64,000 nt of DNA, from the NCBI GenBank assembly GCA_041650895.1, contig JBAZKF010000001.1:359156-423155 (forward strand), in the 5' to 3' direction. Position 1 is the first letter of the stretch; every line of letters starts with the position of its first letter. The notes beneath the pieces were generated by a model that saw nothing but the letters and a program-made list of their open reading frames with translations, had not been told where the DNA came from and searched no databases. This stretch comes from Patescibacteria group bacterium. Lineage in GTDB: Bacteria; Patescibacteriota; Patescibacteriia; 2-01-FULL-39-33. Position numbers and translations under genes: made by a program. Of the stretch, positions 23,751 through 32,981 are shown in pieces.

Positions 23751-24845
23751 CCCCTCCAATAATTCCTTTGTCTGTTGCGCGCATTTATCCCAAGTAAACT
23801 CTCGGGATTTTTGTTTTCCTTTTTCTGCCAACTGCTGTCGAAAATTTTCGACAGTAATTACTTTTTTAATCGCTAAACATATCTCTTCTTCTTTTAAGGG
23901 GTTCACATAGAGCACCGCTTCTCCGCCAATCTCCGGCAAAGAACCGGCGTCGGAAGTTATAACCGGCAAGCCACAAGCCATCGCCTCTGCCACCGGCAAG
24001 CCGAATCCCTCATACAAACTCGGAAAAACAAACACCTCAGCGTGGCTTAATAATTCATGTTTTCTTTCTGGCGTAACATAGCCCAGATACTTTATCGCTT
24101 CTTCCTGCAATTCAGCGTTAGCTTGTCTTAATCCTCTGAATATCTCTTCATTCTTCCAGCCGTTTTTACCGGCCAGAATTAATTTTAAGTCACGCGCCAC
24201 CGGCTCTTCCTGCTTAAGTTTTTTAAACGCCCCGATCAATCGCGTCAGGTTTTTCCGCGGTTCAATAGTACCCAGATACAAAATATATTTCTCTTTGCCT
24301 TTTTGATAAGTCGCTTCTCTGTCGGCCACGCCCTCATAGATCACCTCAATCTTTTCTGGCGCAATGCCAAATAGCTTAATAATATCTCGTTTAGTACTGT
24401 TAGAAACGGCGATAATCTTATCTGCTTGTTTTAAGGATTGCGGTACCAAATAACGCCGATCAAAATTGATCAACCGATCCAGAAATAACTCCGGATAAAG
24501 ATAAACTGCCAAATCATGAATTGTTACCACGGCTTGGCCGCGATAGCCCAAGGGAATAATATTGGCGGGAAACAGGCAGACATCAAGCTTTTGCCGGTTG
24601 ATTAACTTACCAACTATCAACTGGGAATAAAAAAACGGCAAATAACGACGATAACGCGACAACGGAAAACGCTTTATTTCATAATCGCCTGCCACTATTT
24701 CCGGAGGCAGTTTTTCATCTTCATTCAAAAACAAGACATAATGATTATGCTTGTCCTGAATCAATAGATTTTTAACCAACTGCCTGCCGTACTCGCCGAT
24801 TCCCGCCGAGGCAACCAGAGTCCGGCAATCAATCCCGATTCTCAT
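23730..24845 (-). CDS. Glycosyltransferase family 1 (GT4-like)
   Basis: C-terminal motif EGFGLPVAEAMACGLPVITS. Confidence 0.8.
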   Translation of the reverse strand: MRIGIDCRTLVASAGIGEYGRQLVKNLLIQDKHNHYVLFLNEDEKLPPEIVAGDYEIKRFPLSRYRRYLPFFYSQLIVGKLINRQKLDVCLFPANIIPLGYRGQAVVTIHDLAVYLYPELFLDRLINFDRRYLVPQSLKQADKIIAVSNSTKRDIIKLFGIAPEKIEVIYEGVADREATYQKGKEKYILYLGTIEPRKNLTRLIGAFKKLKQEEPVARDLKLILAGKNGWKNEEIFRGLRQANAELQEEAIKYLGYVTPERKHELLSHAEVFVFPSLYEGFGLPVAEAMACGLPVITSDAGSLPEIGGEAVLYVNPLKEEEICLAIKKVITVENFRQQLAEKGKQKSREFTWDKCAQQTKELLEGLQQVKR

Positions 24846-24846
24846 A

Positions 24847-26103
24847 TTATTTGATTAAGCGTCGCAGTTTATCGGCATTTAAGCCCGGCCCGATCAAAGC
24901 TAGATTGACGCGTTTAAAATCAAAAATATCCTTGGCCACCCGTTGCACTTCTTTGGCCGATACTGCAAAAATCTTTTTTAATTTCTGCTCCGGCGTCATT
25001 AACGGCTTATTCATTAATTCCTGATTGACATAAAACTGCGCAATAGACATGGAATCCTCCAAATCCAAAGCGGTCTTTCCGGCAACGAATTCTTTGGCTC
25101 GATTCAATTCCTCAGCAGTCACGCCGCCAGCCAGGATACTTTTAATTTCTAAAATAATCGCCTCTAAAGCCAACTCCAACCGCGCCTTGTCCAAGCCTGC
25201 CTGAATCACTAATAACCCGGTATCCTCATACAGATTCGGCCAGGAACGGATAAAGTAAGCTAGGCCCTTTTGTTCCCGTATGTTAATGAATAAACGCGAA
25301 CTCATATTGCCACCGAGAATAATCGCTAGAAGATTCAAGGCGGGAACGCGTTTATCATGAGTGGACCAAGCAGGAAAACCCAAAGCCAACTGTACTTGTT
25401 CTGTCGCCTTATCCTTGATTTTTATCCTCGGCTTTTGTTGTTTAATTATTGATCGTTTAATGGCTGACTTTTTTCCGCCGGGCAAAGAGAATTTAGCCGA
25501 GATTTCCTTGATCTGCTTATCGCTGAATTTTCCAGCCAAACCGATAACGACATTGGCGCCGTTATAATAATTACGTTTGTAGGCCAAAAGTTTTTTTCTG
25601 TCCAGTCCCCTGACTGTTTTCTTACTGCCGGCAATCAGATGACCCAGCTGCCCGCCGTCAAAGACTAATTCCTCCAACATCTCCTCCACATGCATCAAGG
25701 GATTATCCTCATACATATTGATCTCTTCCACAATCACACCCTTCTCTTTTTCCAACTCAACGGCATCAAATTTAGAATTAATAACCATGTCCGACAGCAT
25801 ATCAATAGCCAGTGGCAAGTGCCGAGCATCGGATTTGATATAATAACCGGTCATATCCTTGCCGGTAAAAGCGTTGTATTCCGCACCAATGCCGTCCAGC
25901 TCCTTGGACAAATCCAAGGTCGTCGGACGCCGATCCGTCCCCTTAAACATCATATGTTCAATAAAATGAGAAACACCTCTAAGCTGTGGCGTTTCCTGGC
26001 GGCTACCCACCTTAAACAGCACCAGCAAGCTGGCAGTCTGAGTATCATGAAGCGGCGCCGTAATCAATCTGATGCCGTTTTTCAGGGTTTGCTTTTTATA
26101 CAT
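24847..26103 (-). CDS. M16-family zinc peptidase (insulinase/pitrilysin-like)
   Basis: HxxEH motif (HFIEHMMFKGT); 418 aa. Confidence 0.8.
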   Translation of the reverse strand: MYKKQTLKNGIRLITAPLHDTQTASLLVLFKVGSRQETPQLRGVSHFIEHMMFKGTDRRPTTLDLSKELDGIGAEYNAFTGKDMTGYYIKSDARHLPLAIDMLSDMVINSKFDAVELEKEKGVIVEEINMYEDNPLMHVEEMLEELVFDGGQLGHLIAGSKKTVRGLDRKKLLAYKRNYYNGANVVIGLAGKFSDKQIKEISAKFSLPGGKKSAIKRSIIKQQKPRIKIKDKATEQVQLALGFPAWSTHDKRVPALNLLAIILGGNMSSRLFINIREQKGLAYFIRSWPNLYEDTGLLVIQAGLDKARLELALEAIILEIKSILAGGVTAEELNRAKEFVAGKTALDLEDSMSIAQFYVNQELMNKPLMTPEQKLKKIFAVSAKEVQRVAKDIFDFKRVNLALIGPGLNADKLRRLIK

Positions 26104-26156
26104 AAACTTATTTTTGCTAAATTTACAAAGTATTTTAATATTTTCGCTATTTTCCT

Positions 26157-26185
26157 ATTGACAAATAATATGGATATGCTATAAT
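26157..26185 (+). promoter_or_regulatory. Strong sigma70 promoter TTGACA-16nt-TATAAT, orphan (points into the 3' end of the convergent NYN gene)
   Basis: Sequence ttgacaaataatatggatatgctataat; there is no plus-strand CDS downstream. Confidence 0.5.
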
Positions 26186-26191
26186 TACGAT

Positions 26192-26252
26192 AGAATCACG
26201 ACGAGAGAGGTTCTCTAAGGGTTTCGTCCCGACGAGAGCCTTTTTCATTTGT
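26192..26252 (+). ncRNA. Candidate small RNA (about 60 nt) driven by the orphan promoter, with nested stem-loops and a 3' T-run
   Basis: acgatagaatcacGACGAgagaggttctctaagggttTCGTCccgacgagagcctttttc: imperfect hairpins followed by TTTTT. Confidence 0.3.
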
Positions 26253-26781
26253 GTTTATTTTTATACTCCAACTTACCCTTCAAAGCATTTAAAAAAATCA
26301 AAATATTATTTGCCGAGGAACTTAAGCGATCCAAAAGACAAGAATAATTATTTTGATTCGGAATTAACACTCTCTTGAGTTTTGAGTTATTAATTAGATA
26401 TTCTACCAAACAATAAAAATCACCATCACCGGAAACAATAATGGCCTTATCATAATTAGAATATTCAATCATGGCGTGCAATACCAATTCGGCATCTACG
26501 TTACCCTTAACTGTGCCATCAGCTAATTCCAGTGTCGGTTTAAATACGCAAATATAGCCATACTCCTGTAATTTTGTATACATCGCTTGATTACCGGGTT
26601 TAAAGCCGATGAATAGGAAGGCCTTTTCAATGCCATATTTATCTTTAAGATAAATCCTGAATCTTCTATAATCAAGCTGCCAGCCGGAATAAATCTTCCG
26701 GTCTTTTTTATAAATGTCTTTTGACAAGCTTTGATATAAATTATTGCTGTCAATAAAAGCGTAGTTTTTTCCTTGTGGCAT
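26245..26781 (-). CDS. NYN-domain (LabA/DUF88, PIN-like) putative RNase, immediately downstream of the DGR RT on the same strand
   Basis: NYN hallmarks YAFIDSNNLY…, KAIIVSGDGDF; 178 aa. Confidence 0.65.
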   Translation of the reverse strand: MPQGKNYAFIDSNNLYQSLSKDIYKKDRKIYSGWQLDYRRFRIYLKDKYGIEKAFLFIGFKPGNQAMYTKLQEYGYICVFKPTLELADGTVKGNVDAELVLHAMIEYSNYDKAIIVSGDGDFYCLVEYLINNSKLKRVLIPNQNNYSCLLDRLSSSANNILIFLNALKGKLEYKNKHK

Positions 26782-26801
26782 ATTATTTTATATAGATAAT
26801 C

Positions 26802-27788
26802 TTAGCAAGTATAAGCCAAATTAGCAATTTTTCGTTGTAATTTATAGCTCTGGCCGTGACTCAATAAACCCAAATATGAATTCATGGTTTCCGGGTTATG
26901 ATTTTTCCTCACTCGCCTGAACATCCTTCTTTTACTCGCCGTCCGAAACACCCGATGATCAAAAAAATTCACCCAACCCAGAAAGTCTAAGCCGGGACTT
27001 AAAGTTTTGATAAATAGCTTATCGGGATGAAGCGTCAGTTTCATTTTATCTCTCAAATAAGCATCAACCGATGGAATTATTTTTTCCAAATAATTTTTAT
27101 CATCAGCCATAATCACGAAGTCATCGGCATAGCGGATATAATATTTTACTTTCAGTTTATGCTTAACAAATTGATCAAATCTGTTCATATAAATATTAAC
27201 CAATAACTGCGAAGTTAAATTCCCCAACGGCAAACCTCCGTTAAAACTGTCAATCGCCTCGTCTAATAAACCCAAAATCTTTTTATCCGGAATATACTCG
27301 GCCAGGATATTTTCCAATATCCCATGATCGATATTGGCAAAAAATTTCCTGATGTCACCCTTTAAAATCCAACAAGTGTGGGTGTTATTCTGGCTGGCTT
27401 TGTAAGCAAATTTCTTGAATCTGGCCAAGGCCTTATGCGTGCCCTTGCCCAGCCGGCAGGAATAAGAATCGACGATGAAAGTCCGGTCAAAAAACGGATA
27501 CAAAATCCGATAAATCGCATGATGAACCAACCTATCACTGACCGACGCCTTATGGATTTGCCGCGACTTGGGATCGCAGATCTTAAAGGCCTGGTAGCCG
27601 CCATGGCGATAAGCGCCGGTTGCCAAATCCCGATGCAATGCGATAAGATTATCCATAAGGCGCAATTGGAATTCCTGCACGTCTTTTCTATTCCTTTTGC
27701 CCCTGACAAACTCCTGCCAAGCCAACAATAAATTATCAAGACAGATAATCTCTTCAAAAGTATGGCTCAACTTGATTTTCCCGTTCAT
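26802..27788 (-). CDS. Diversity-generating retroelement (DGR) reverse transcriptase
   Basis: RT domains with a YADD catalytic box (YIRYADDFVIM) and motif 4 LPLGNLTSQLLVNIYM (the DGR-specific xGxxxSQ, not the QGxxSP of group II/retron RTs). 328 aa, no maturase or endonuclease domain. Adjacent TR/VR pairs are present. Confidence 0.9.
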   Translation of the reverse strand: MNGKIKLSHTFEEIICLDNLLLAWQEFVRGKRNRKDVQEFQLRLMDNLIALHRDLATGAYRHGGYQAFKICDPKSRQIHKASVSDRLVHHAIYRILYPFFDRTFIVDSYSCRLGKGTHKALARFKKFAYKASQNNTHTCWILKGDIRKFFANIDHGILENILAEYIPDKKILGLLDEAIDSFNGGLPLGNLTSQLLVNIYMNRFDQFVKHKLKVKYYIRYADDFVIMADDKNYLEKIIPSVDAYLRDKMKLTLHPDKLFIKTLSPGLDFLGWVNFFDHRVFRTASKRRMFRRVRKNHNPETMNSYLGLLSHGQSYKLQRKIANLAYTC

Positions 27789-27815
27789 AATGATTCCTTT
27801 AATTTACCCCCCCCC

Positions 27816-27825
27816 CAACGGAAAA
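27816..27825. repeat. C10 homopolymeric tract between the divergent RT and avd1 genes
   Basis: cccccccccc in an AT-rich intergenic/5' region; a candidate slipped-strand phase-variation site. Confidence 0.6.
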
Positions 27826-27834
27826 TTTATCCCG

Positions 27835-28140
27835 TTGATTCAAAAAACCAAAACGCTATACATAGTATGGCATGGTTACTACCAATCTCTACCCAAAACC
27901 CATAAATACTCATTGGGTCAAAAAATCGACATCTTCTTTATTGAGGCGATTGAAGCTATGGCTACCGCCAGTTTCCTGCCACCACAAGCCAAACCGCCTC
28001 ATATCTGCCTAGCAATTCAAAAAATTGATTTGATAAAAATCATGCTAATGATTCTATGGGAGATAAAGGCGATTGATAATAATAAGTATTTAAATCTATC
28101 GCAACCACTAGACGAAATCGGCCGGATGCTAGGCGGCTAG
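27835..28140 (+). CDS. Avd-like four-helix-bundle (23S rRNA IVS protein family) accessory protein, copy 1 (start uncertain; no in-frame ATG until 27958)
   Basis: The C-terminus …LWEIKAIDNNKYLNLSQPLDEIGRMLGG matches the Avd/four-helix-bundle family C-terminal helix (…EIGkmLggW). It is paralogous to copy 2 with synonymous third-position differences in this frame. It is on the strand opposite to the RT and TR. Confidence 0.45.
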   Translation: MIQKTKTLYIVWHGYYQSLPKTHKYSLGQKIDIFFIEAIEAMATASFLPPQAKPPHICLAIQKIDLIKIMLMILWEIKAIDNNKYLNLSQPLDEIGRMLGG

Positions 28141-28149
28141 TACAACAAA

Positions 28150-28185
28150 CTGACAAAACAAAACTCCCCGGATAAACTCAGGGAG
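28150..28185 (-). terminator. Hairpin CTCCC-N12-GGGGAG plus T-run immediately 3' of TR1 (minus sense): DGR RNA 3' structure or terminator
   Basis: Minus-sense sequence …cgcaac tctctttatttttCTCCCtgagtttatccGGGGAGttttgtttt. The same element follows TR2. Confidence 0.5.
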
Positions 28186-28199
28186 AAAAATAAAGAGAG

Positions 28200-28320
28200 T
28201 TGCGGAGCGCAGCCGGATTATCGACGTTGAAGTCGTTATCAAGCCAGTTGTAGTTCCAGTTCCATCTGTCGCCATTCCAGTACAGGTAACGCACATACAG
28301 GTTGTCGTCCGAGTTGCGAT
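28200..28320 (-). repeat. DGR template repeat TR1 (cognate to VR1 at 28702-28822)
   Basis: 121-nt match to VR1. All 20 mismatches fall on TR adenines in the minus sense (TR AAC, GAC, TAC, AAT or AGA codons against G, D, C, R or F codons in the VR). Minus-sense TR1 encodes …RNSDDNLYVRYLYWNGDRWNWNYNWLDNDFNVDNPAALRN. Confidence 0.9.
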
Positions 28321-28576
28321 TTTCGCAAAATTCCGCCTAAACCACCATCCGTTGATCCGCCGACTGGCGGAATCTCCAGATTGAATCTTATGCGTGAGCT
28401 AAACTCACATAGAACATTGCGCCAAGTATCTTTACTTTAATTAGGCATTAATATATTACGCTACTACTGACATTGATCAGTAATATTCTGAATAATACTA
28501 ACACCGGCTGAGGTAGCGGATAGCCGTAACCAACCGCGGATTTACCTGTGGCTATTTACATAATAGCAGAATAATT

Positions 28577-28619
28577 TGAAAAAATAAATCCTGCACAAGT
28601 CAGATGACCGATGCAGGAT
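28577..28619 (-). terminator. Intrinsic terminator of target gene 1 (hairpin atcctgca…tgcaggat plus T-run on the minus strand)
   Basis: An 8-bp perfect stem followed by TTATTTTTT in the minus sense. Confidence 0.6.
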
Positions 28620-28697
28620 ATTTTGTACAAAATTTAGGGCTAAGGACTAAAGTTTAAAATTTCAAGAACTGAAAATCAAAATTCTAAGTCCAAAGGA

Positions 28698-29255
28698 CTA
28701 CTTGCGGAGCGCAGCCGGATCACCGACGCCGAAGCCGCCATCAAGCCAGCCGTAGCCCCAGTCCCATCCGCCGCCACCCCAGCACAGGTAACGCACAAAC
28801 AGGCGGTCGTCCGAGTCGCGATAAATAGTCCCCCAAAAGAAAATACATTTGCCTTTCCATTCTTCCGGAATCAACTCGAGATGTGCGAGTAAATAGTCAA
28901 GAACATTAGCGTTCAAGACCAGCTTGCCGGCCAACAACTTACGCAAAGCGTGACCTTTGACGATGTTATTCTTCTGGTCATTGGCCAGATAAAGCTCAAT
29001 CAATGCCGGATTCCACTCCAGTTGACCGCCCTTCTGGTGTTCTTCAACTTTCCAGCCGGACGGAACGAAAGGATGAACGTCGCAGTCAATAATGTACTTG
29101 GTCACGATGATTTCCGCCAAGCCATGCAGCACTTTCTTGAATTCCGCCAAACTCTTAAACTGCTGGAGCTTCGTCATCTCCTCCGGCGTATAACCAGCAG
29201 CTTCAAAAGCATCCATTACCTTGTTGGCTTGGCCTACCGAGTAAAGCGTGGACAT
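28698..29255 (-). CDS. DGR target (variable) protein 1; C-terminal VR at 28702-28822
   Basis: Probable start MSTLYSVGQ… with RBS AGGAGA; the track ORF extends to 29285 via GTG. The C-terminus …FVRYLCWGGGGWDWGYGWLDGGFGVGDPAALRK differs from the TR1-encoded peptide only at Asn/adenine-containing codons. It is paralogous to target 2 (shared core …VLDYL…IPEEWK…FFWGTI…). Confidence 0.85.
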   Translation of the reverse strand: MSTLYSVGQANKVMDAFEAAGYTPEEMTKLQQFKSLAEFKKVLHGLAEIIVTKYIIDCDVHPFVPSGWKVEEHQKGGQLEWNPALIELYLANDQKNNIVKGHALRKLLAGKLVLNANVLDYLLAHLELIPEEWKGKCIFFWGTIYRDSDDRLFVRYLCWGGGGWDWGYGWLDGGFGVGDPAALRK

Positions 29256-29338
29256 AGTCCATCTCCTTTTTGCGGACACGTTCACTTTGGAACCCGTCCA
29301 GTTTGAGGTGCGAATTGGCCTTGCATACAGAGCAATTC

Positions 29339-29367
29339 CAATATATTAAGTATAGCACGTATTATAT
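29339..29367 (-). promoter_or_regulatory. Promoter of target gene 1: TTGACA-17-TATACT (minus strand), with a TTTATCCAC motif just upstream
   Basis: Reverse complement reads TTGACAaaatatataatacgtgcTATACT. Confidence 0.5.
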
Positions 29368-29455
29368 ATTTTGTCAATAGATTTATCCACTCTACCAACT
29401 AACTAATTATTTTTATCTAAATTTAAACAAAAAATCACCACTATCTATTGGGATA

Positions 29456-29701
29456 ATGGAAGCAATTGCCACGGCCAGTTTCCTGGACAAACTGAGTAAG
29501 TCGCCGTATGTGGAAACAGCGATCAGAAAAACTGATATTTTAAAAATATTATTATTACTTTTGTGGGAGACAAAATCATTAGATAATAATAAATATTTGG
29601 CCTTATCAATTAAGATTGATGAGGTGGGCAAAATGCTTGGCGGCTGGAAAGGACAATTACTAAGTAAAAACTCCCCCGACAATAAAGCGGGAGAGAAATG
29701 A
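29456..29701 (+). CDS. Avd-like four-helix-bundle accessory protein, copy 2 (81 aa)
   Basis: MEAIATASFL…LWETKSLDNNKYLALSIKIDEVGKMLGGW…; resembles the BPP-1 Avd C-terminus (…EVGRILGSW…). A 40-nt upstream element (aaatttaaacaaaaaatcacc…ttgggataATG) is shared with a truncated third copy at 31508-31556. Confidence 0.5.
   Translation: MEAIATASFLDKLSKSPYVETAIRKTDILKILLLLLWETKSLDNNKYLALSIKIDEVGKMLGGWKGQLLSKNSPDNKAGEK
29663..29695 (-). terminator. Hairpin CTCTCCCGC-N-GGGGGAG plus T-run immediately 3' of TR2 (minus sense), homologous to the element after TR1
   Basis: Minus-sense sequence …gcaactcacttcatttCTCTCCCgctttattgtcGGGGGAGttttta. Confidence 0.5.
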
Positions 29702-29707
29702 AGTGAG

Positions 29708-29829
29708 TTGCGAGAACCGCAGCCGGATTATCGACGTTGAAGTCGTTATCAAGCCAGTTATAGTTCTCATTCCACTGGCTGTCGTTCCAATACAAGTAAC
29801 GGACGTAGAGGTTGCCATCAGAGTTGCGG
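29708..29829 (-). repeat. DGR template repeat TR2 (cognate to VR2 at 30184-30305)
   Basis: 122 nt, with no indels against VR2. The minus-sense sequence encodes RNSDGNLYVRYLYWNDSQWNENYNWLDNDFNVDNPAAVLA against the VR2 peptide RRSDGRLYVRCLFWSGSQWRGCYSWLDSGFVGGSPAAVLA. Most mismatches fall at TR adenines, and four non-adenine mismatches cluster at the 3' end (IMH/IMH*-like). Confidence 0.85.
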
Positions 29830-30065
29830 TTGTATGTGGCGCGCCGCCGATATCACTGCCCGTCGAATACTCTCTGGGCTGGATCTTATTTGTGATCTTA
29901 AATCACTTAGCGCTCCGCACCAAGTATCTTCATTTTTGAAGTTTCTACAGGCGCCACACTGCCTGAAGCCTTGACCGCAGGCATTCTCGGCGACTGGACA
30001 CTGGATTCGGTGGCAAGCAGCCATAACCGCTTGCTGATATTCACCTAATACCTTTTTTATTTTAG

Positions 30066-30101
30066 CATAAAAAATAATCCCGAACCATTGCTGATTCGGG
30101 A
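30066..30101 (-). terminator. Intrinsic terminator of target gene 2 (ttcccgaa…ttcggga plus T-run)
   Basis: A 7-bp stem followed by TTATTTTTT in the minus sense. Confidence 0.6.
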
Positions 30102-30169
30102 ATATGTTCAAAAAAATTGCATTAAGGTCAAATTTCCCAAGGATCCATATAGATCCAGGAAATCAAGAC

Positions 30170-30847
30170 CTAAGCGCTGATACTTGCGAGAACCGCAGCG
30201 GGGCTGCCGCCGACGAAGCCGCTATCAAGCCAGCTATAGCACCCACGCCACTGGCTGCCGCTCCAAAACAAGCAACGGACGTAGAGGCGGCCATCAGAGC
30301 GGCGGAAAATTGTGCCCCAGAAAAAGATAAAGATAATATTTCCTTTTTCATTTTTTTCCTTCCACTCTTCGGGGATGTACTCCTGATTGGCCCTAAGAAA
30401 GTCCAGAACGCTTGCCGACAACACCGGCCGGCCGTCAAGTTCTTTACGTAGTTCATGGCCGACAATAAATCGACCGTTAACCTGGAGCGTTGAGCGATAC
30501 AAAACGACTTTCTGTCCGTCAATGTATAAACCGTCAAATCTCTTTTCAATTGAAATCTTGCCCTGGCGGGCATGTTTCTCAACTGTTGCGTCAGTAAATG
30601 GCGGTCGCGGATCATTGTCCGTATCAATTACCGCCCGAAGGATCGGCGTTGTCTGGCGCAGAAATTCCTCGCCGATTTCCTTGAGTTTCTCAACAAAAAA
30701 ACTCTTGCCCGGACCAGTCGCCCAATCAATCACTTCGGCGCCGACCTTGATTTTCTTCAGAGTTGCGGCTATCAGCGAGAATAGATTGGCGAGCGCCGCC
30801 ACAAACTGCCCGACTTCCTTCCAATTCAAACTCTTTTTCGTCGACAT
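30170..30847 (-). CDS. DGR target (variable) protein 2; C-terminal VR at 30184-30305
   Basis: 225 aa; paralogous to target 1, and its C-terminus matches the TR2 product apart from differences at Asn codons. Confidence 0.85.
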   Translation of the reverse strand: MSTKKSLNWKEVGQFVAALANLFSLIAATLKKIKVGAEVIDWATGPGKSFFVEKLKEIGEEFLRQTTPILRAVIDTDNDPRPPFTDATVEKHARQGKISIEKRFDGLYIDGQKVVLYRSTLQVNGRFIVGHELRKELDGRPVLSASVLDFLRANQEYIPEEWKEKNEKGNIIFIFFWGTIFRRSDGRLYVRCLFWSGSQWRGCYSWLDSGFVGGSPAAVLASISA

Positions 30848-30974
30848 CTTTCACGTCCTTTCTATCTCCCCCATTACTGGCTCCTGGCCAACTCCGGATT
30901 GATATATTGAACTTCATGCAACAATTGGCTCTGCCGGAATGACAGCTTGCCAATATACTATTTTGTATCATACA

Positions 30975-31003
30975 TCAATAATTTTGTCAAGGGGTTTATC
31001 CAC
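30975..31003 (-). promoter_or_regulatory. Promoter of target gene 2 (TTGACA -35 box; weaker -10), with a TTTATCCACTCC motif upstream as for target 1
   Basis: Reverse complement reads …gtggataaaccccTTGACAaaattattgatgtatgaTACAAA. Confidence 0.4.
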
Positions 31004-31098
31004 TCCACTGAACTTTTTATCCGTGATTCAATGATTAATAGCCTATAATTACCAAAAAACAATAAAAAAGCCATCCGTCAACGGGTGGCTAAAGAACC

Positions 31099-31431
31099 TT
31101 ATTTACTCTGCAGACATGGTAACGCCGAAAGCCATTTATCAAATTTCCTATAAATCCGCCCCAAAAACCTGTTCCATTTTTTCTCACCATAAAAATCTAT
31201 GTACCTTTGCCTAAATTCAAGAAAAGACACTCTGGGAGCTAACCGTGGAACTCCAATCATCGCCTTGATCCTATTGGGATATTCTTTGATAAATCTCCTG
31301 GGGAATCGTTGGTGAATAAAAGCAATCGTATACGGGTCATCATCATGATTGCCCAATAACGGAACCACGAGCCTTTCATAAAGATCTTGACCATGCAACC
31401 CAATAAATTCAGACTTACTCATTACGTCCAT
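31099..31431 (-). CDS. Hypothetical 110-aa protein with its own TTGACA-17-TATGCT promoter and GGAGG RBS
   Basis: Has an ORF, an RBS and a promoter at 31450-31480 (reverse complement). The ORF shows no similarity to the DGR targets. Confidence 0.45.
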   Translation of the reverse strand: MDVMSKSEFIGLHGQDLYERLVVPLLGNHDDDPYTIAFIHQRFPRRFIKEYPNRIKAMIGVPRLAPRVSFLEFRQRYIDFYGEKKWNRFLGRIYRKFDKWLSALPCLQSK

Positions 31432-31580
31432 GACGCCCTCCTTTGTTTTTATTGTTTCTTAGAAAGCATAGACGACTTTAGAAAAAATGTCAATAATTTT
31501 GTTACTATTCAAATTTAAACAAAAAATCACCGCTATCTTTTGGGATAATGATGATTTTTAGTCAATCTCTGATTTTATAA

Positions 31581-32981
31581 TTATTTTAATCTCTTTTTCA
31601 CCCATTCCTTCAATTCTTCCGTCTTAACCTTATCCTGCTTCATAGTGTCGCGATTGCGGACAGTCACCTCGCCTTTTTCCAAGGTGTCAAAATCAACGGT
31701 AACGCAAAACGGCGTACCCACCTCATCTTGCCGGCGATAGCGTTTGCCCACATTGCCGTTATCATCAAATTCACATTTAAATTCACTGCGCAGATCGTCA
31801 AATATCTCCCGCGCCTTAGCCACTAGTTCCGGCTTGTTTTTCAGTAACGGGAAAACCGCGACCTTAACCGGGGCGATTTTGACTGGGAACTTCAATACCA
31901 CTCGGGAATCGCCTTCGTCCAAGTCCTCTTCAGTATAAGCGGCTGACAAAGCCACCAGCACCGAACGATCCAAACCAAAAGTTGGCTCTAGGACATGAGG
32001 CAGATATTTTTTGCCGGCTTGCTGATCAAAATAACTCAAGTCCGTGCCGGAAAATTTCTGATGCTGACTCAAATCAAAATCCCCGCGATGCGCCAAGCCG
32101 AACAATTCGGCAAAACCAAAGGGAAAATTATACTCAATATCCACAGTCTTACGGGAATAATGCGACAATTTTTCTTTCGGATGCTCATAATGCTTCAAGT
32201 CTTCTTTTTTAGCTCCCAATTCCAGGGCAAATTCTTCTTGCGCCTTCAGCCAATCCTTAAACAACGATTTCCACTCGGCATCCGGTGAAATAAAATATTC
32301 TATCTCCATTTGCTCGAATTCACGCACGCGAAAAATAAAATTACGCGCCACGATCTCATTGCGAAACGCCTTGCCGATCTGCCCGATGCCAAACGGCACC
32401 TTCACCCGACAAGAATCAACCACATTCTTAAAATCGGAAAAGATCGCGCCGGCCGTTTCCGGTCGCAAGTAAACCGGCTCATCAATGCCATTCATTTCCG
32501 TCTTAAACATCATATTGAAAAACCGGGCCTCAGTCCAATTCTTCTTGCCACAATTAGGGCAACTAATCTTTTCTTGAATAACTTTACTCATTTCATCCAA
32601 TTTTCCCTCTAAGTCTTCCCCCAAGACCTCACTGATCAAATTATCAGCCCGATAACGCATTTTGCAATTCTTACAGTCAACCATCGCATCATTAAAACCG
32701 CTCAAATGACCGGAAGCCTCCCATAACTTAGGATGCAACATGATTGGGCCGTCAATTCCCACCATATCCTCACGCTCGGTAACGAACATCTTCCACCATA
32801 AGGCCTTAATGTTATTCTTGAGTTCTACGCCATACGGGCCATAGGAGTAAGCATTGGCAAAGCCACCATAAATCTCACAGGCCGGAAAAACAAAGCCTTT
32901 CCGCTTGCATAAAGCCACAATTTTCTCCATCTTGTCATTCTGTTGCTGTTTATTAGCCATAAAAATAAAGTTATTTAACAA
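31581..32981 (-). CDS. glyQS: Glycine--tRNA ligase (class II, dimeric GlyQS type)
   Basis: …GFVFPACEIYGGFANAYSYGPYGVELKNNIK… and class II motifs; 466 aa (the start may be a later Met). Confidence 0.85.
   Translation of the reverse strand: MLNNFIFMANKQQQNDKMEKIVALCKRKGFVFPACEIYGGFANAYSYGPYGVELKNNIKALWWKMFVTEREDMVGIDGPIMLHPKLWEASGHLSGFNDAMVDCKNCKMRYRADNLISEVLGEDLEGKLDEMSKVIQEKISCPNCGKKNWTEARFFNMMFKTEMNGIDEPVYLRPETAGAIFSDFKNVVDSCRVKVPFGIGQIGKAFRNEIVARNFIFRVREFEQMEIEYFISPDAEWKSLFKDWLKAQEEFALELGAKKEDLKHYEHPKEKLSHYSRKTVDIEYNFPFGFAELFGLAHRGDFDLSQHQKFSGTDLSYFDQQAGKKYLPHVLEPTFGLDRSVLVALSAAYTEEDLDEGDSRVVLKFPVKIAPVKVAVFPLLKNKPELVAKAREIFDDLRSEFKCEFDDNGNVGKRYRRQDEVGTPFCVTVDFDTLEKGEVTVRNRDTMKQDKVKTEELKEWVKKRLK

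Follow-up and report, generated by a model that had tools for sequence, protein, structure and literature searches.

A reversed avd gene, a truncated second avd copy and two putative template RNA units in a Patescibacteria diversity-generating retroelement

INTRODUCTION

Why do the avd-like genes of a diversity-generating retroelement (DGR) point against its reverse transcriptase (RT), its template repeats (TRs) and its target genes? The question is raised by a 64,000-nucleotide (nt) stretch of DNA, here called the window, from a metagenome-assembled genome of a Patescibacteria group bacterium (assembly GCA_041650895.1, contig JBAZKF010000001.1, positions 359,156 to 423,155 of the forward strand), in which an initial annotation, made from the letters alone, had noticed two avd-like open reading frames (ORFs) antisense to the direction of TR and RT transcription. 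An order of this kind is on record for the Candidate Phyla Radiation (CPR): architecture B3 stands for TR-(avd)-RT, the parentheses marking the reverse strand, with a reported share of 90% among CPR DGRs (Wu et al. 2018, NAR 46:11, PMC5758913). Here we describe the anatomy, conservation, covariation and synteny of the window locus, and we ask whether it is of this type, what RNA its TRs belong to and what the two avd copies are. The explanation that we consider probable as a whole is that of a B3 DGR in which each TR is part of a self-contained RNA, avd copy 1 encodes a working protein and avd copy 2 is a relic.

RESULTS

The orientation of avd is the usual one in this lineage

We asked whether the locus is a DGR and on which strand its parts lie. 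A repeat of ∼122 nt is present in four copies, which form two pairs of a TR and a variable repeat (VR). In an ungapped comparison all core mismatches between TR1 (28320-28199) and VR1 fell at TR adenines of the minus strand (24/24), and TR2 and VR2 differed at 23 adenines and at about 4 clustered non-A positions near the 3′ end. VR1 and VR2 form the C-terminal ends of intact target ORFs of 195 and 225 amino acids (aa). As the mismatches between TR and VR fall almost only on adenines when read on the minus strand, the locus is a DGR, as had been proposed, and its parts had been assigned to the right strands. The RT matched CPR homologues in the thousands; its best NCBIfam match was a group II RT model, under the cutoff of that model, in libraries that hold no DGR-specific RT hidden Markov model (HMM). 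Between 26.2 and 33 kb of the window nearly all genes are on the minus strand, in the series glyS, a 110-aa ORF, target 2, target 1, RT and a gene with an NYN domain. The exceptions are the two avd-like ORFs, and their annotated plus-strand coordinates (27835-28140 and 29456-29701) were confirmed, as was the minus-strand position of the RT, both TRs and both targets from the ORFs and the adenine mismatches.

To place this layout among its relatives we used 80 reference-genome loci taken from an alignment of RT homologues, all turned so that the RT is on the plus strand, and searched their six-frame translations with an HMM built from an avd alignment. Exactly one avd was present in each of the 74 loci that have sequence upstream of the RT, always opposite to the RT and abutting or overlapping its start; in the remaining 6 of the 80, which gave no avd match, the sequence starts at the RT. 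With 74 of 74 loci divergent, the reversed avd is therefore universal in this clade, and the window locus is a Patescibacteria (CPR) DGR of the known B3 architecture. The orientation that had been flagged as an anomaly is thus the ordinary layout and the documented norm of CPR DGRs, and in itself it is of little significance.

The start codons of the RT and of avd copy 1 (27786-27792) are separated by one base (CAT-A-ATG), and in relatives the overlap of the two starts reaches ∼17 nt. As the starts abut or overlap, each promoter must sit within the coding sequence of the other gene; the 5′ ends of the RT and avd mRNAs would be mutually complementary. The features of the locus, in window coordinates, are:

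26802-27788, minus strand: DGR reverse transcriptase, 328 aa (RVT_1 E=1.1e-22; YADD and LGNLTSQ in the translation)
27790-28140, plus strand: avd copy 1, 116 aa (Avd profiles, AlphaFold2 model, Foldseek)
28164-28185, minus strand: terminator-like stem-loop of the TR1 RNA (CTCCCTG-loop-CGGGGAG), with a U-run at 28155-28163
28187-28196, minus strand: 3′ strand of the putative long-range duplex of unit 1, UCUUUAUUUU, pairing with leader positions 28429-28438
28199-28320, minus strand: TR1, A-sense on this strand (repeat comparison with VR1)
28327-28492, minus strand: predicted structured leader of the TR1 RNA, with the P0 hairpin, AAGAUACUUGG and the P1-P2-P3 junction (nhmmer E=2.5e-23)
28698-29285, minus strand: target gene 1, 195-aa ORF, with VR1 at 28701-28822
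29407-29458, no strand assigned: repeat D6, 87% identical to 31499-31550, terminator-like on the minus strand; left junction of the extra cassette
29456-29701, plus strand: avd copy 2, 81 aa, comprising the end of helix 2, helices 3-4 and the tail (Avd profiles, alignment)
29671-29695, minus strand: terminator-like stem-loop of the TR2 RNA, with a U-run at 29662-29670
29696-29703, minus strand: 3′ strand of the putative long-range duplex of unit 2, holding the copy 2 stop codon in antisense; its partner is in the unit 2 leader
29709-29829, minus strand: TR2 (repeat comparison with VR2)
29845-29990, minus strand: predicted structured leader of the TR2 RNA (nhmmer E=5e-31)
30170-30847, minus strand: target gene 2, 225-aa ORF, with VR2 at 30185-30305
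31099-31431, minus strand: 110-aa ORF, bracketed by 26-nt inverted repeats (31043-31068 and 31446-31471)
31499-31550, no strand assigned: repeat D6′, terminator-like, just downstream of the glyS stop
31581-32981, minus strand: glyS

The TR belongs to a putative RNA unit that ends within avd

If avd faces the TR, where does the TR RNA begin and end? In many loci an 11-mer, AAGAUACUUGG, is found ∼100 nt before the TR. RNAalifold, run on 44 of these leader sequences, predicted P1, a closing helix of 12 bp, together with the hairpins P2 and P3, and 21 of the 23 pairs had compensatory changes. The fraction of paired cells in the alignment was 95.8%, compared to 74.4% in shuffles and 30-54% with slid partners, and double-sided changes numbered 254 against 71.5 in shuffles, with none of 500 shuffles reaching the observed value. 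A profile of the leader matched once, always in RT sense, in each of the about 70 related loci that have enough upstream sequence; two matches were found only in the window. Upstream of the leader there is a further hairpin (P0) with a weak partial match to Rfam RT-7 and RT-9, two motifs published as neighbours of RT genes, with no function assigned to them (Weinberg et al. 2017, PMC5737381). At gathering thresholds, Rfam returned only tRNA and rRNA on 11 related loci.

The leader can also pair with the other side of the TR. The sequence AAAUGAAGA, just 5′ of UACUUGG, is complementary to UCUUCAUUU, which lies between the TR and a 3′ hairpin and holds the avd stop codon in antisense. The mean duplex energy was −6.66 kcal/mol with the own partner versus −5.33 kcal/mol with partners from other loci, and 0 of 2000 permutations were as low. 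In the window, the duplexes of units 1 and 2 are set apart by a compensatory change (UGAAG:CUUCA vs UAAAG:CUUUA), and both units retain all helices. From these pairings the TR appears to be looped out between P1 and the long-range duplex.

Just 3′ of the TR, the RT-sense strand of almost every locus has a stem-loop followed by a U-run, for example CUCUCCC-loop-GGGAGAG-UUUUGUUUU, and the stem sequences vary freely across loci (CUCCGCCG/CGGCGGAG, CAAAGACCCC/GGGGUCUUUG, CCUGGCGCGUA/UACGCGCCGGG). A strict scan for terminator-type hairpins was positive at 63 of 76 avd 3′ ends on the RT-sense strand and at 4 of 76 on the avd-sense strand, with 6.9% in shuffles, and in 58 of the 63 cases the hairpin overlapped the avd coding sequence. 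The unit 1 hairpin of the window (28185-28164) is intact and lies downstream of a premature TAG of copy 1. Read as the reverse complement, GGGAG-UUUUGUUU encodes K-Q-N-S-P and UUUCUCxCC encodes G-E-K; the conserved tail of Avd is therefore largely an image of the RNA element.

We propose that the TR would lie within a non-coding RNA gene of its own, separate and self-contained, which is oriented towards avd. Its RNA would consist, in order, of the leader (P0 and the P1-P2-P3 junction), the TR, the strand that pairs with the leader, and the stem-loop with its U-run, the last two elements lying antisense within the final ∼15 codons of avd. As these 3′ elements lie within the end of avd, transcription of the TR is predicted to stop there and not to cross the gene. 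Such a unit may remove the apparent transcription conflict and perhaps has not been described before. Both termination at the hairpin and the use of TR2 in trans by the RT and Avd1 are steps that we infer from this arrangement.

avd copy 1 has an ATG and encodes all four helices

The initial annotation had copy 1 lacking an ATG and being a pseudogene or starting at a TTG, an idea that rested on an overlooked codon. The reading frame is open from 27697, and an ATG lies in frame at 27790-27792, which is 45 nt before the TTG chosen earlier (a TTG at 27772 is an alternative start). From this ATG the product has 116 aa (MIPLIYPPPNGKFIPLIQK...), and its N-terminus can be aligned to those of full-length homologues, MTYSTPPPTILPVLQK for example (M-x5-PPP...). 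The ATG of copy 2 (ggataATGgaagca), which copy 1 was thought to have lost, is a codon internal to the family motif I-E-I-[I/M]-E-A and not a start.

Short Avd proteins in the databases raise a similar issue, and for copy 1 the NCBI gene call is only 75 aa. A conserved 'half-Avd' family of short (75-93 aa) proteins was considered and rejected, because the gene callers had settled on an internal ATG or TTG in the related loci L001 and L085, where the complete frame continues open further upstream. P0228 (80 aa) and P0224 (93 aa) both lie within longer open frames that encode all four helices. These two are thus confirmed start-codon artefacts, and P0124 and many other 75-93-aa 'four helix bundle' entries appear to be of the same kind: where the upstream avd frame is open without an ATG, gene callers take the internal Met of IEIMEA or a TTG. 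Many short database 'Avd' proteins, the 75-aa copy 1 among them, may hence be read as products of start-codon choice.

Are the two ORFs related to Avd? NF033474 matched copy 1 with E=8.7e-14 over profile positions 2-101 of 104 (51.7 bits, curated cutoff 80) and Pfam bAvd (PF22296) with E=4.4e-8 over positions 4-102 of 107 (score 34, cutoff 40). The matches to copy 2 covered less than the complete four-helix domain (NF033474, E=1.8e-8, positions 52-102 of 104; bAvd, E=3.5e-6, positions 65-104 of 107). Nearly all of 100 homologues have a precomputed PF22296 match, and a few homologues have PF05635 co-hits. The proposed similarity to Avd was thus borne out for both ORFs; TIGR02436, the four-helix-bundle family named beside it, had no NCBIfam match to either at E<=0.01. 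AlphaFold2, given a 45-sequence alignment, modelled copy 1 with a predicted local distance difference test (pLDDT) score of 89.6 and helices at residues 15-31, 36-62, 69-91 and 97-113. Foldseek against the PDB aligned this model with 2GSC, 2RLD and the BPP-1 Avd structures 4DWL/8UB7 at template modelling (TM) scores of 0.72-0.81 (0.72-0.75 with probability 1.00 for 4DWL and 8UB7). A sequence-profile search of the PDB gave a marginal match only, to BPP-1 Avd 4DWL (E=0.15).

The copy 1 stop codon, TAG (28138-28140), stands at a nearly invariant W of the family (TGG-to-TAG). Copy 1 consequently ends before the conserved tail GGW.GQL.KQNSP....GEK of roughly 20 residues, which copy 2 keeps; this loss was missed in the initial annotation. 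Reassignment of TAG was rejected, as 3/32 of the long window ORFs end with it. The closest relative, L088 (86% nt identity), still has the W but no longer the canonical stop, and its ORF continues for 19 codons into the TR. In this sub-lineage the tail is thus labile in evolution. A compensated change in the duplex destroyed the canonical TGA stop in the avd1 sub-lineage, hence the run-on of L088 into the TR. On its predicted fold, copy 1 would be a working Avd, complete in its four helices and short of nothing but the C-terminal tail.

avd copy 2 resembles the end of another avd allele

The alignment of copy 2 begins at the end of helix 2, in agreement with the earlier view that it corresponds to the C-terminal helices only. 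Structure prediction of the 81-aa protein, which had been suggested as a check, gave a poor model from the single sequence (pLDDT 58.7). At the protein level copy 2 is 57% identical to copy 1, 70-78% identical to avd of other organisms and 75% identical to the avd of L085. L085 (Logan SRR8925740, 1-3954) is the same glyS/M16-peptidase locus, with a target2-type gene, a TR2-type repeat and a full-length avd2-type ORF, and has 73% nt identity to window 29474-30913. Its DGR is decayed, with the RT reduced to the last ∼264 nt and the NYN gene absent. Between copy 2 and its L085 orthologue the nonsynonymous (pN) and synonymous (pS) differences were 0.16 and 0.68, a ratio (omega) of ∼0.10. Such a low omega would mean either that the truncation is recent relative to the divergence from L085 or that the fragment is still constrained.

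Window 26779-29457 (RT, avd1, TR1 and target 1) has a colinear counterpart in L088, which continues directly with 31513-32017 (the end of glyS) and so lacks 29458-31512. This 2.09-kb segment holds copy 2, the TR2 unit, target 2 and the 110-aa ORF, and is bounded by the 52-nt direct repeat D6. At its left junction, TATTGGGATAATG, there is a 13-nt microhomology shared by D6 and the avd motif ATTGAGATAATG. None of the about 75 other loci searched had two avd genes or two leaders. In three metagenome assemblies the arrangement with copy 2 and two cassettes is stable.

Most likely, copy 2 represents the last 40% (3′) of another avd allele, one orthologous to the full-length avd of L085. An RT-avd1-TR1-target1-D6 cassette would have recombined into a genome that carried the other allele (target2-TR2-avd2), with one crossover in homologous flanking DNA and the other at the 13-nt microhomology, and this recombination would have deleted RT2 and the 5′ 60% of avd2. 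Read in antisense, the last ∼40 nt of copy 2 would still provide the TR2 RNA with its 3′ elements, the remainder being most likely a relic. We infer this history from sequence comparison, and by the same comparison copy 2 is most likely for the greater part a recombination relic whose 3′ end overlaps TR2 RNA elements.

The repeats and the surroundings of the cassette

Can the repeats tell how recently the element was active? The last 42 nt (3′) of TR1 and TR2 (28199-28240 and 29709-29750) are identical, and the repeats are 77% identical overall. The identical stretch suggests gene conversion, or selection for recognition by a single RT-Avd pair. The non-A mismatches of VR2 (30185-30226) cluster in the stretch where TR1 and TR2 are identical, as expected if VR2 has not been rewritten since a conversion. 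Their position suggests that homing into VR2 last took place before a conversion from TR1 to TR2. Over 28235-30598, both VRs included, the window shares 99.95-100% identity with two other metagenome contigs; the sole mismatch between the window and these assemblies, at 28437, is outside the VRs. One related locus (L087, 2787-4078) has two tandem target1-like genes, each with a VR, for one TR and one avd; therefore, target duplication without TR duplication also happens in the lineage.

The surroundings of the element were compared with those of the loci L003/L005. For window 24000-27236, flanking genes have ∼86% DNA identity to GCA_041662745.1 and the NYN protein is 96% identical. The DGR part is far more diverged (RT 83% aa identity, avd/TR region 75% nt identity), and GCA_041662745.1 has a single, different target of 631 aa. 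The DGR cassette thus apparently outpaces its surroundings in sequence evolution or in exchange. A role of the NYN gene, which lies downstream of the RT, as a general accessory was rejected, since only the closest relatives and L034 have it.

DISCUSSION

How well does a B3 DGR with self-contained TR RNAs, a working copy 1 and a relic copy 2 stand up? Several observations weigh against it. Both Avd profile scores of copy 1 are under their curated cutoffs (51.7 < 80; 34 < 40). Copy 2 keeps an intact ORF, its ATG and all family-invariant residues in its span, with an omega of ∼0.10, and VR2 has 4 non-A mismatches to TR2. Differences in the VRs were sought among three independent metagenome contigs and none were found, in consensus assemblies that cannot show read-level variation. 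A sigma-70 scan found no convincing promoter for either TR RNA, nor for avd1 or copy 2. Finally, the hairpin could be a protein-binding stem-loop instead of, or besides, a terminator.

Could copy 2 be a functional truncated Avd-like protein, for example one that co-assembles with the tail-less Avd1 or supplies the tail? Its 81-codon ORF and ATG are intact, the invariant residues are kept, the pN and pS values would fit constraint, and it retains exactly the tail that copy 1 lacks, in an arrangement stable in three assemblies. However, it has neither helix 1 nor most of helix 2, its model is poor, no Shine-Dalgarno-like spacing was found before the ATG, and nothing like it is present in any other of about 75 loci. 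A full-length past can account for the low omega, and the conservation of the tail is better explained as the antisense of RNA elements. We therefore regard a function of the protein as quite improbable. Unlikely too, if a little less so, is an origin by tandem duplication in situ of a segment from D6 through target and TR to the 3′ part of avd, followed by long divergence. The direct repeats D6 and D10 upstream of both targets and the colinearity of the two units from mid-avd through the leader would fit such an event, but copy 2 is nearer to the avd of other organisms (70-78%) than to copy 1 (57%), and far less divergence has accumulated in D6 (87%) than in the parts from avd and TR (70-77%). 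Moreover, L085 has a full-length copy-2-type avd beside an RT remnant, and a truncated duplicate could not regenerate full length. Recombination with another allele remains our preferred origin of copy 2.

A different reading is that the element is decaying, with Avd1 turned into a pseudogene by the premature stop and diversification at an end. The TAG at a nearly invariant W, three assemblies without VR variation, the non-A mismatches of VR2 and the loss of the RT in the related locus L085 all suit it. Yet the four helices of Avd1 are intact, the RT catalytic motifs are intact, the TR1/VR1 mismatches are all at A and every helix is kept in both RNA units. As several family members are also short-tailed and L088 has lost its stop, the tail is evidently free to vary. 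We give decay about the same low standing as tandem duplication. Somewhat less remote, though still doubtful, is the idea that the reversed avd is a regulatory device, in which read-through of the TR RNA past the hairpin would give an avd antisense and an RT sense message and so tie the levels of Avd and RT to TR transcription. In every locus the TR unit and avd run towards each other, the overlapping 5′ ends of avd and RT mean that their promoters must lie in each other's coding sequence, and the hairpin has its U-run on one strand only. Regulation of this kind would, however, be compatible with self-contained TR RNAs and a working Avd1 rather than an alternative to them.

Finally, we asked how the locus compares with known systems. 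As in the B3 DGRs of Wu et al. (PMC5758913), the targets lie upstream on the RT strand. The window differs in having two TR RNA units and two targets for one RT and in the truncated avd of its second unit, which has no counterpart among about 70 informative relatives. With the Rfam motifs RT-7 (RF03028) and RT-9 (RF03080) the likeness is limited to the 5′ hairpin of the models, which matches P0 (E=0.0024, 3.3e-4 and 0.43), while the rest of the models is unaligned and the scores (26.6 and 25.6 vs a gathering threshold of 116.8; 21.4 vs 46.1) are far lower. The best structural matches of Avd1 are the 23S rRNA intervening-sequence (IVS) or S23-like bundles (2GSC and 2RLD at TM 0.77-0.81; PF05635), but the context in the window is a DGR and not an rRNA operon, and the likeness does not go beyond the fold. 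CPR DGR RNAs are absent from the representative groups that a structural survey covering 40 nt upstream and 100 nt downstream of the TR displays. The strongly covarying TR RNA unit, with 3′ elements that overlap the avd stop, offers a concrete model, open to test, of what delimits CPR DGR RNAs and how they are recognised.

The closest parallel is BPP-1, with the order mtd-avd-TR-brt. In its cryo-electron microscopy structure an Avd-binding stem-loop is immediately 3′ of the TR (bioRxiv 10.1101/2023.10.23.563531; see also Handa et al. 2018, PMC6182149), and a duplex called 'cPRT Stop' joins sequences upstream and downstream of the TR (bioRxiv 10.1101/2023.10.23.563531). The window locus shares with BPP-1 the adenine-specific transfer from TR to VR, the four-helix fold of Avd, a stem-loop just 3′ of the TR and an upstream/downstream duplex that would loop out the TR. 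It differs in its reversed avd, in having its large structured RNA domain 5′ of the TR whereas that of BPP-1 is 3′ (the Sp region), and in a 3′ flank of ∼45 nt only that is embedded antisense in avd. More tentatively, and at somewhat less than even chances for the combination, the RNA of CPR B3 DGRs may be permuted relative to that of BPP-1, the Avd tail may be mostly a by-product of the RNA, the half-avd may persist as the 3′ part of the TR2 RNA and one RT-Avd pair may serve both units in trans. By analogy of function, the CPR layout would then be a permutation of the BPP-1 plan in which the bulk of the structure has been placed 5′ of the TR.

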